A stretch of DNA of 64,000 nt. Origin: Escherichia phage fEgEco12. Below, one piece after another: positions 2,986 through 3,067 of this stretch (its first letter is position 1; each line of letters begins with the position of its first letter). The stretch is taken from the sequence record PP777464.1. One strand, 5' to 3'. The position numbers were made by a program, and so were the translations under genes. The notes under the pieces were generated by a model that worked only from the letters and a program-made list of their open reading frames with translations, made no database searches and had not been told where the DNA came from.

Positions 2986-3067
2986 CCGGGCGTATCTCAA
3001 CGGTCTTCTAAACCGTCGTTAATCGAGTAACTGGAGTATGCAGGTTCGAGTCCTGTCGCCTGGGCCA
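2986..3067 (+). tRNA. atypical tRNA-like element (canonical UCU anticodon hairpin, T-arm and CCA, no room for a normal D-arm)
   Basis: acceptor CCGGGCG/CGCCTGG, T-loop TTCGAGT, hairpin ACGGT-CTTCTAA-ACCGT at 3000-3016. Confidence 0.4.

Follow-up and report, generated by a model that had tools for sequence, protein, structure and literature searches.

Departures from the cloverleaf are known from several systems. In Cyanidioschyzon merolae, circularly permuted transfer RNA (tRNA) genes have broken acceptor ends, and a canonical tRNA is regained through processing. The tRNA-like structures of plant RNA viruses, placed at genome 3′ ends, can be aminoacylated, have pseudoknotted acceptor arms and take no part in decoding. 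Processing likewise restores a canonical mature tRNA from the split tRNAs of Archaea (PMC3218864, in part). D-armless mitochondrial tRNAs are described as having a short connector of low conservation and a relaxed elbow, with adapted partner proteins (PMC7609411, in part), and allo-tRNAs, mined from genomes and metagenomes and in some cases phage associated, have 8/4 or 9/3 acceptor/T branches and keep the cloverleaf order (PMC5389517, in part). Here we describe an element of 82 nucleotides (nt) at positions 2986–3067 on the plus strand of a 64,000-nt stretch of Escherichia phage fEgEco12 (PP777464.1), a stretch that we call the window. The element is probably a functional phage tRNA-Arg(UCU) gene that reads AGA and AGG and whose connectivity is not that of a cloverleaf. 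A preliminary description, made from the letters of the window, had left the choice between a structurally unusual tRNA-Arg, a tRNA-like processing element and a decayed tRNA, and the comparative data presented below support the first.

Results

Parts of the Element

Written as RNA, the element reads CCGGGCG UAU CUC A ACGGU-CUUCUAA-ACCGU CGUUAAUC GAG U AACUGGAGUAU GCAGG-UUCGAGU-CCUGU CGCCUGG G CCA. Its acceptor stem of 7 base pairs (bp) joins CCGGGCG (nt 1–7, 2986–2992) to CGCCTGG (3057–3063) with one G–U pair, is 98 to 99% paired in the family of related sequences and is followed by the discriminator G (3064) and an encoded CCA (3065–3067). The T arm GCAGG/TTCGAGT/CCTGT (3040–3056), placed by the Rfam alignment and 99% paired in the family, has the canonical UUCRAnU loop. 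The anticodon arm (3000–3016) has the stem ACGGT/ACCGT and the loop CTTCTAA with U33, the purine A37 and the anticodon TCT (3007–3009), reading AGA and AGG. All these canonical features had been noticed in the preliminary description, and we confirm them together with the reported spacing: the anticodon hairpin begins at element nt 15, and 23 nt (3017–3039) lie between it and the T arm.

The acceptor 5′ and 3′ strands stand at the two ends of the gene, in the normal order. Only 7 nt separate the acceptor stem from the anticodon stem, and there is no D hairpin (positions 10–25) among them. The preliminary description, which saw no space for a D arm, is right as to a conventional D hairpin only; a D-stem–like helix of 3 bp does exist and encloses the anticodon hairpin. 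The 5′ strand of this helix, CTC (nt 11–13, 2996–2998), comes after the connector U8 A9 U10 (2993–2995), of which U8 and A9 are invariant in the column counts of the alignment A3 introduced below, and a single nucleotide, A14 (2999), separates it from the anticodon stem. It pairs with GAG (nt 40–42, 3025–3027), which together with U43 occupies 3025–3028. An 8-nt linker, CGTTAATC (nt 32–39, 3017–3024), joins the anticodon stem to this 3′ strand, and a D-loop–like segment, AACTGGAGTAT (nt 44–54, 3029–3039), continues from it to the T arm.

Compensatory Changes in the Helices

We evaluated the structure on alignment A3, consisting of 88 distinct members of 81 to 82 nt with no internal gaps except one optional nucleotide. 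The structure tested comprised the acceptor stem (1–7/72–78), the 3-bp helix (11–13/40–42), the anticodon stem (15–19/27–31) and the T stem (55–59/67–71). Paired bases filled 98.2% of the cells in comparison with 70.9% in shuffled data, and the covariation score was 0.709 in comparison with 0.178, a value reached by none of the 500 shuffles. When the partners were slid by one to three columns, pairing fell to 35 to 45%. All 7 acceptor pairs and all 5 anticodon-stem pairs covary among the 88 members. The 3-bp helix is paired in every one of them, with pair 12–41 being UA in 62, GC in 19, AU in 6 and CG in 1 and pair 13–40 being CG in 76, UA in 6, GC in 5 and UG in 1. A wider set of 146 distinct sequences includes 145 with the helix, in 12 different Watson–Crick triplet combinations. 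Alignment A5, built with a covariance model and thus fitted to the structure being tested, has 99 distinct rows, and all 21 tested pairs in it, T-stem pairs included, vary on both sides.

Three further pairings were tried and rejected. In a hairpin of GUUA with UAAY (nt 33–36 with 43–46), three of the four pairs never vary and the fourth is mixed (GU 43, AU 13, GC 11, other 12), and the motif is missing from short-linker subfamilies though UAR stays invariant. Nucleotides 14 and 39 are paired in 17% of the cases. A pairing of nt 11–13 with the second GAG (within GGAG, nt 49–51) is contradicted by the invariance of that GAG while nt 11–13 vary. The linker from the anticodon stem to nt 40 is 3, 4, 5, 8 or 10 nt long across the subfamilies; in the subfamily of the window it is the conserved CGUUAAYC, with C32, A36 and A37 invariant.

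The behavior of gene finders and annotators could be taken to indicate that the element is a tRNA pseudogene in decay or that a standard cloverleaf exists in another register. With default settings, ARAGORN does not call the element; in its intron mode, at an 80% threshold and in its mitochondrial modes, the outcome is no call, a cloverleaf of poor quality for Asp(atc) or truncated “D-loop” calls whose ends are wrong. Existing annotations of family members also disagree, most members being unannotated and others given as tRNA-OTHER, tRNA-Undet, tRNA-Leu, tRNA-TERM, tRNA-Val(aac) or a plain “tRNA” on the wrong strand. Against both readings, compensatory changes are found in all helices and in phages of Proteobacteria as well as Actinobacteria, and as all helices covary across unrelated phages, the sequence is not decayed. 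The only cloverleaf that could be forced on it, the Asp(atc) fold obtained at the 80% threshold, has mismatched D and anticodon stems, ignores the covarying hairpin and has no support from covariation. As far as sequence analysis goes, the comparative data refute the two readings, to which we assign practically no probability: the decayed tRNA of the preliminary description is excluded, and its unusual structure withstands the search for another register. One of the discordant annotations, a bare “tRNA” on the opposite strand in phage VpaE1_ev035 (LR699048.1; L342:149–230), is an annotation error.

The D-Loop–Like Segment and a Putative Strand Swap

After the 3′ strand of the helix, the members share a pattern of U-A-R, 0 to 2 nt, G-G-A, 2 to 7 nt ending in A-Y, and then the T stem; in the window it appears as U43 A44 A45 C46 U47 G48 G49 A50 G51 U52 A53 U54. 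A near-invariant UAAYUGGA(G)UAU leads in this way from the D-like helix directly into the T stem. Its part UAAYUGGA resembles positions 13–20 of a normal tRNA-Arg: the canonical tRNA-Arg of Asteriusvirus UE-S1 has the D loop AAUUGGAUA, and it is to this loop, AATTGGATA, that the segment of the window shows resemblance. The A after GG is present in 142 of 145 members (GGA at 3033–3035 in the window). One contig, L049, carries two subtypes of the family, one at 12999–13080 with anticodon CCT and an 8-nt linker and another at 13348–13429 with anticodon TCT and the linker AGAAA, the D-loop–like segment of the latter being exactly UAAUUGGAUAG.

If nt 45 and 54 are the equivalents of R15 and Y48, they are expected to covary between A:U and G:C, and the base counts tested that prediction. 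In the wider set, the combinations were A:U in 141, G:C in 3 and G:G in 1, with no A:C and no G:U; in the 99 rows of the model alignment, they were AU in 90, GC in 6, GU in 1 and other in 2. The G:C combination occurs in at least three lineages (L272/L322, L330 and L226).

From these resemblances, we infer a set of equivalences with the canonical tRNA. Nucleotides 10–13 would correspond to the D-stem 3′ strand 22–25 (11–13 to 23–25), A14 to position 26, nt 15–31 to the anticodon arm 27–43 and nt 40–43 to the D-stem 5′ strand 10–13. Further along, A44 would take the place of canonical A14, the partner of the invariant U8, A45 that of R15, G48 and G49 those of G18 and G19, A50 that of A20, a determinant for arginyl-tRNA synthetase (ArgRS), and U54 that of Y48. 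The 3-bp helix would then be a D stem whose two strands are swapped along the chain. The strand normally found after the D loop (22–25) would come first and pass via A14 (position 26) into the anticodon stem, and the strand normally found before the D loop (10–13) would follow the anticodon arm and enter the D-loop–like segment; the helix itself would be unchanged, with the entry and exit of the chain being different. The D-loop–like segment would supply A14, R15, G18, G19 and A20, and its last nucleotide, immediately ahead of the T stem, would be Y48, with which R15 pairs. With the same tertiary pairs, such a swapped order could restore the L shape, elbow and core of an ordinary tRNA.

Predicted Arginine Identity

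Anticodons were counted where the search pattern had left them free. Among the 88 distinct members they were TCT in 84, CCT in 2, TCG in 1 and ACG in 1, and the complete loop CTTCTAA was found in 70. Of the nine single-base neighbors of TCT, only the two still meaning arginine occur. A search with the covariance model adds CCG and GCG to these, and thus all six arginine anticodons are represented. The identity set of the bacterial ArgRS is A/G73, A20, C35 and U/G36 (PMC9976931, in part). In the 88 members, C35 is invariant, position 36 is T in 86 and G in 2, and the discriminator is G in 52, A in 31, T in 4 and C in 1, being G or A in 83 (G in the window); CCA is encoded in 52. Charging by the host ArgRS could take place via C35, U36, G73 and the A after GG, and the predicted RNA could be a substrate for RNase P, bind EF-Tu and serve on the ribosome. 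An encoded CCA and a standard acceptor/T minihelix suit processing by RNase P and 3′ exonucleases, as in the maturation of E. coli and T4 tRNAs.

Several uncultivated viral contigs contain arrays of such Arg genes. Two of them (L322:2107–2349 and L272:8180–8420) have the anticodons TCT, CCT and CCG with 4 to 6 nt between neighbors; further arrays have TCT, CCT and ACG (L307:1175–1539) and TCT, GCG and TCG (L335:478–558 and 3326–3496). The sole non-arginine member (L339:2889–2967, minus strand) has the anticodon TAT (isoleucine, AUA) and a U instead of A after GG. U20 is among the bacterial determinants for isoleucine (PMC9976931, in part), and this member may represent an identity switch out of arginine.

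Genomic Slot and Codon Demand

The flanks of the element are conserved in UE-S1, a close relative that is ~97% identical to the window over the promoter region, the upstream tRNA-Ser and a downstream open reading frame (ORF) of 54 codons. In the slot between them, a 77-nt canonical tRNA-Arg(tct) (L004:1125–1201) stands end to end in place of the 82-nt element. The 26 canonical tRNAs of phage wV8 include Arg(acg) but not Arg(tct), which leaves the element as its only reader with UCU. Near 166 loci bearing the element, the canonical tRNAs include 60 Lys(ttt), 58 Thr(tgt) and 33 Arg(acg). ARAGORN reports Arg(tct) 6 times; two of these calls (L049 and L201) are family members drawn incorrectly, leaving about 4 of the 166 loci with both forms. 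Within the ORFs of the window, AGA makes up 27% and AGG 7% of the arginine codons; the figure for AGA in E. coli O157:H7 is 5.1% (PMC3606486, in part). The gene would supply a reader of AGA to an AT-rich phage that uses this codon far more than E. coli does.

The replacement bears on two other explanations. The element could be a tRNA-Arg mimic outside translation, acting during infection as a decoy or sponge for a host factor specific to arginine tRNAs, such as a nuclease, a modification enzyme or ArgRS. Selection on C35, U/G36 and the anticodon loop would equally suit a bait for an anticodon-reading protein, and the counteraction of tRNA nucleases by phage tRNAs is well established as a theme (PMC10264068 and PMC12445682, both in part). 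Yet a decoy has no need for a perfectly covarying 7-bp acceptor stem, an A/G discriminator and an often-encoded CCA. The element also takes the exact place of a canonical tRNA-Arg(UCU) gene and is the sole tRNA with a UCU anticodon in the near-complete set of wV8, and the arrays combining several anticodons (for example, TCT, CCT and CCG in L322 and L272) look like a decoding set. We find a decoy unlikely. Besides the element, the window has two adjacent tRNA-Thr(tgt) genes with different stems (6987–7060 and 7067–7140, plus strand); tRNA-Thr(UGU) is the type of phage tRNA that reportedly rescues cells from P2 OLD (PMC12445682, in part).

The other explanation is a processing signal, that is, RNase P or RNase E punctuation for the tRNA-Ser and the downstream mRNA with no role of its own. 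The layout of the locus would allow this. A canonical tRNA-Ser(UGA), called by ARAGORN and scoring 59.6 bits with the Rfam tRNA model, occupies 2892–2981 on the plus strand, and the 4-nt spacer AAAT (2982–2985) runs from its CCA to the 5′ end of the element, as the preliminary description had it in placing the element next to tRNA-Ser. About 10 nt upstream of the tRNA-Ser, there is a promoter-like site (2852–2881, plus strand; TTGGAA, 18 nt, TG-TATAAT), recognized by a consensus match of 10/12 with an extended −10 TG. This one site may drive a transcript of both, and tRNA-Ser(UGA) and the element are probably cotranscribed. Downstream, 21 nt separate the element from the first of three small ORFs. 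For punctuation, however, an acceptor/T minihelix would suffice, and neither the arginine-only anticodons and their loop, the D-loop–like motif, the presence inside tRNA clusters of unrelated phages nor the exact exchange with a real tRNA-Arg gene is accounted for. The processing element suggested in the preliminary description is highly improbable.

Two details of the neighborhood are worth recording. The three ORFs on the plus strand (3089–3253, 3250–3414 and 3411–3575) are tandem paralogs of 54 codons (MTHEEWM...) with ATGA overlaps; the first, conserved in UE-S1, has no match in Pfam. The tRNA-Ser(UGA) genes of the window (2892–2981) and of UE-S1 (L004:1031–1120) are identical save for compensatory changes in the anticodon stem (ACGGT/ACCGT vs. 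CTTGT/ACAAG).

Spread of the Family

The window belongs to an Asteriusvirus-like jumbo coliphage and is 95 to 99% identical to PBECO4, 121Q and their relatives. The 82-nt element matches 270 phage records with 80 to 100% identity. The matches fall into unrelated groups: Asteriusvirus, Felixounavirus (wV8), phi92-like phages (Antha), T5-like Klebsiella phages (Riker), KB57/Mydo-like phages, 7t3/PHA46 jumbo phages, Kuravirus, a Straboviridae phage of Pectobacterium, and Streptomyces phages. Altogether, unrelated phages and viral metagenomes yielded more than 200 loci with ~150 distinct sequences. A 3′-anchored pattern found 55 loci in IMG/VR, and two 5′-anchored patterns found at least 120 loci per scan in the same database; a pattern scan of metagenomes gave 93 loci. 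Among 185,579 species genomes, one 3′ pattern hit two contigs only, both from metagenome-assembled genomes, and the element was not found in 5,426 complete E. coli genomes. Within the searches used, phage and viral sequence accounts for essentially the whole family. A covariance model built from the 88-member alignment identified exactly one copy in the window with 101.5 bits, ordinary tRNAs scoring at most 28 bits. A weak match of this model in AT-rich sequence at 37827–37894 (plus strand; 15.4 bits, E ~0.07) is probably noise.

At two loci, an HNH_3 endonuclease gene begins 9 to 16 nt after the family member (L001:1089–1598 in Klebsiella phage Riker and L009:1096–1614 in Salmonella phage PHA46). 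The two proteins are 26% identical and the phages unrelated; an annotated HNH gene covers the match to the element in phage tootiki. This suggests that the HNH genes are homing endonucleases with the tRNA gene as their landing site, and they may help to explain the spread between phage groups. The HNH genes at the two loci were the only recurrent neighbor seen as a candidate for a shared protein partner, no systematic survey of neighbors having been made. Over the 200 nt tested, four 146-kb records labeled “Campylobacter phage” (MG065639, MG065645, MG065656 and MG065689) show 98.5% identity to phi92-like coliphages, and their host label looks doubtful.

Folding and Model-Based Searches

The Rfam tRNA model (RF00005) reaches 32.6 bits on the element in permissive scans, above the gathering score of 29, with the D arm (15 model positions) deleted and 20 nt inserted in the variable region; the element is not listed in a scan of the whole window at the gathering threshold with default filters, which listed six tRNAs. 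Other Rfam families gave only weak, chance-level matches in the region. The alignment to the tRNA model is what one would expect from a D-armless tRNA with a long variable region, in which helix 11–13/40–42 is incidental or an extension of the anticodon arm and the 23 nt form a flexible connector as in mitochondrial tRNAs. The “D-loop” tRNA reported by the mitochondrial mode of ARAGORN, with anticodon tct and wrong ends, and the result from RNAalifold, which gave three helices only, agree with this. A mere connector, however, would not account for a 3-bp helix found in 88/88 and 145/146 sequences with 12 Watson–Crick combinations, for the near-invariant segment after it that reads like D-loop positions 13–20 with GG and A, or for the covariation of nt 45 with nt 54. 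The segment is too constrained for a flexible connector, and this reading is therefore disfavored; we regard it as distinctly unlikely.

Several observations weigh against the rewired tRNA-Arg as well. The fold of the single sequence of the element has z = −0.61 and is not better than shuffles, and one sequence alone thus proves nothing. RNAalifold did not predict helix 11–13/40–42 on energy; as energy folding misses it, the argument for the helix is one of covariation counts. Columns 42–64 of A3 were set by the search pattern and their invariance is partly by construction, although 5′-anchored searches recovered the same motif, with variants. The G:C support at 45:54 comes from few lineages and is accompanied by G:G exceptions. 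The mapping to canonical positions 10–26 and 48 draws on sequence resemblance and one covarying tertiary pair, not on a three-dimensional model. The conserved linker CGUUAAYC is left unexplained by the rewired model. Finally, the rewired and canonical Arg(UCU) genes are not strictly exclusive, as the ~4 loci with both forms demonstrate. Nevertheless, the decoy, the processing signal, the connector-only tRNA and the pseudogene all fit the data less well than a rewired tRNA-Arg does.

Discussion

We found no description of the rewired architecture in the full-text literature searched, including a review of noncanonical tRNAs searched for key terms; most subscription journals fell outside this scope, and absence from it is not proof. 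Within the literature that could be found, the connectivity has apparently not been described among natural tRNAs. Genome papers may list members simply as tRNA-Arg: the rV5 paper lists a tRNAscan “Arg AGA” tRNA, which may be one of them. If charged and decoding, the element would to our knowledge be the first elongator tRNA of bacterial type with a mature chain not following the order of the cloverleaf. The order would then be dispensable for a bacterial elongator tRNA, and the family would reveal the parts of the tRNA core that do not depend on topology. It would also provide a natural test case for recognition by ArgRS, where A20 poses a problem, and by RNase P, EF-Tu and the ribosome.

Members of the family are frequent among therapeutic and model phages, including Felix O1-like, phi92-like and 121Q/PBECO4-like phages and T5-like Klebsiella phages. 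Because ARAGORN misses the family and other pipelines mislabel it, phage tRNA repertoires and analyses of codon compensation systematically lack this reader of AGA. As to why the lineage has been kept, we tentatively consider that it works in ordinary bacterial translation and that its body escapes a factor of the host or a rival phage that recognizes the canonical tRNA-Arg body, for example, a tRNA-directed defense nuclease; we hold this to be a speculative idea, with the chances rather against it. Were it true, phages would hold a structural, not merely sequence-level, route to nuclease-resistant tRNAs. The rewired tRNA is a candidate for screens of phage tRNAs that resist tRNA-targeting defense nucleases.

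Among known systems, the canonical tRNA-Arg(UCU) of bacteria and phages, as in UE-S1, E. coli argU and phage T4, is the closest counterpart of the element; with that of UE-S1 it shares the genomic slot right after tRNA-Ser(UGA), the 7-bp acceptor, the 5-bp T stem with a UUCGAxU loop, the G/A discriminator, the GGA motif and U8. The anticodon loops are AUUCUAA in UE-S1 and CUUCUAA in the element, and the latter is also the loop of E. coli argU. Unlike the canonical tRNA-Arg, the element nests the anticodon arm between the D-stem strands, and its D-loop–like segment leads into the T stem; it has no separate variable loop, and an extra linker of 3 to 10 nt across the family follows the anticodon stem.

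With the D-armless mitochondrial tRNAs, such as metazoan mt-tRNA-Ser and the nematode mt-tRNAs, the element has in common the absence of a D hairpin between the acceptor and the anticodon arm. In those tRNAs the connector is unpaired, and the contacts of G18 and G19 with the T loop are lost. Unlike them, the element keeps a covarying D-like helix, GG, the A after GG and a full T loop, and it is found in phages of ordinary bacterial hosts with standard partners. Permuted and split tRNA genes share with the element a segment order that departs from the cloverleaf, whereas the element keeps its acceptor strands at the gene ends; judged by its sequence, no single excision or circular permutation would bring it to the cloverleaf order, and the mature RNA itself would be rewired. 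The plant viral tRNA-like structures (mentioned in PMC9976931) resemble it in reaching a tRNA-like shape by another connectivity and in being recognized by host tRNA enzymes, which for the element is a prediction. In contrast to these, the element is a small gene standing by itself; its acceptor stem is normal, and its anticodon is under selection. The allo-tRNAs alter the branch lengths and leave the order intact; the rewired family, unlike them, keeps the 7/5 branch and alters the order.

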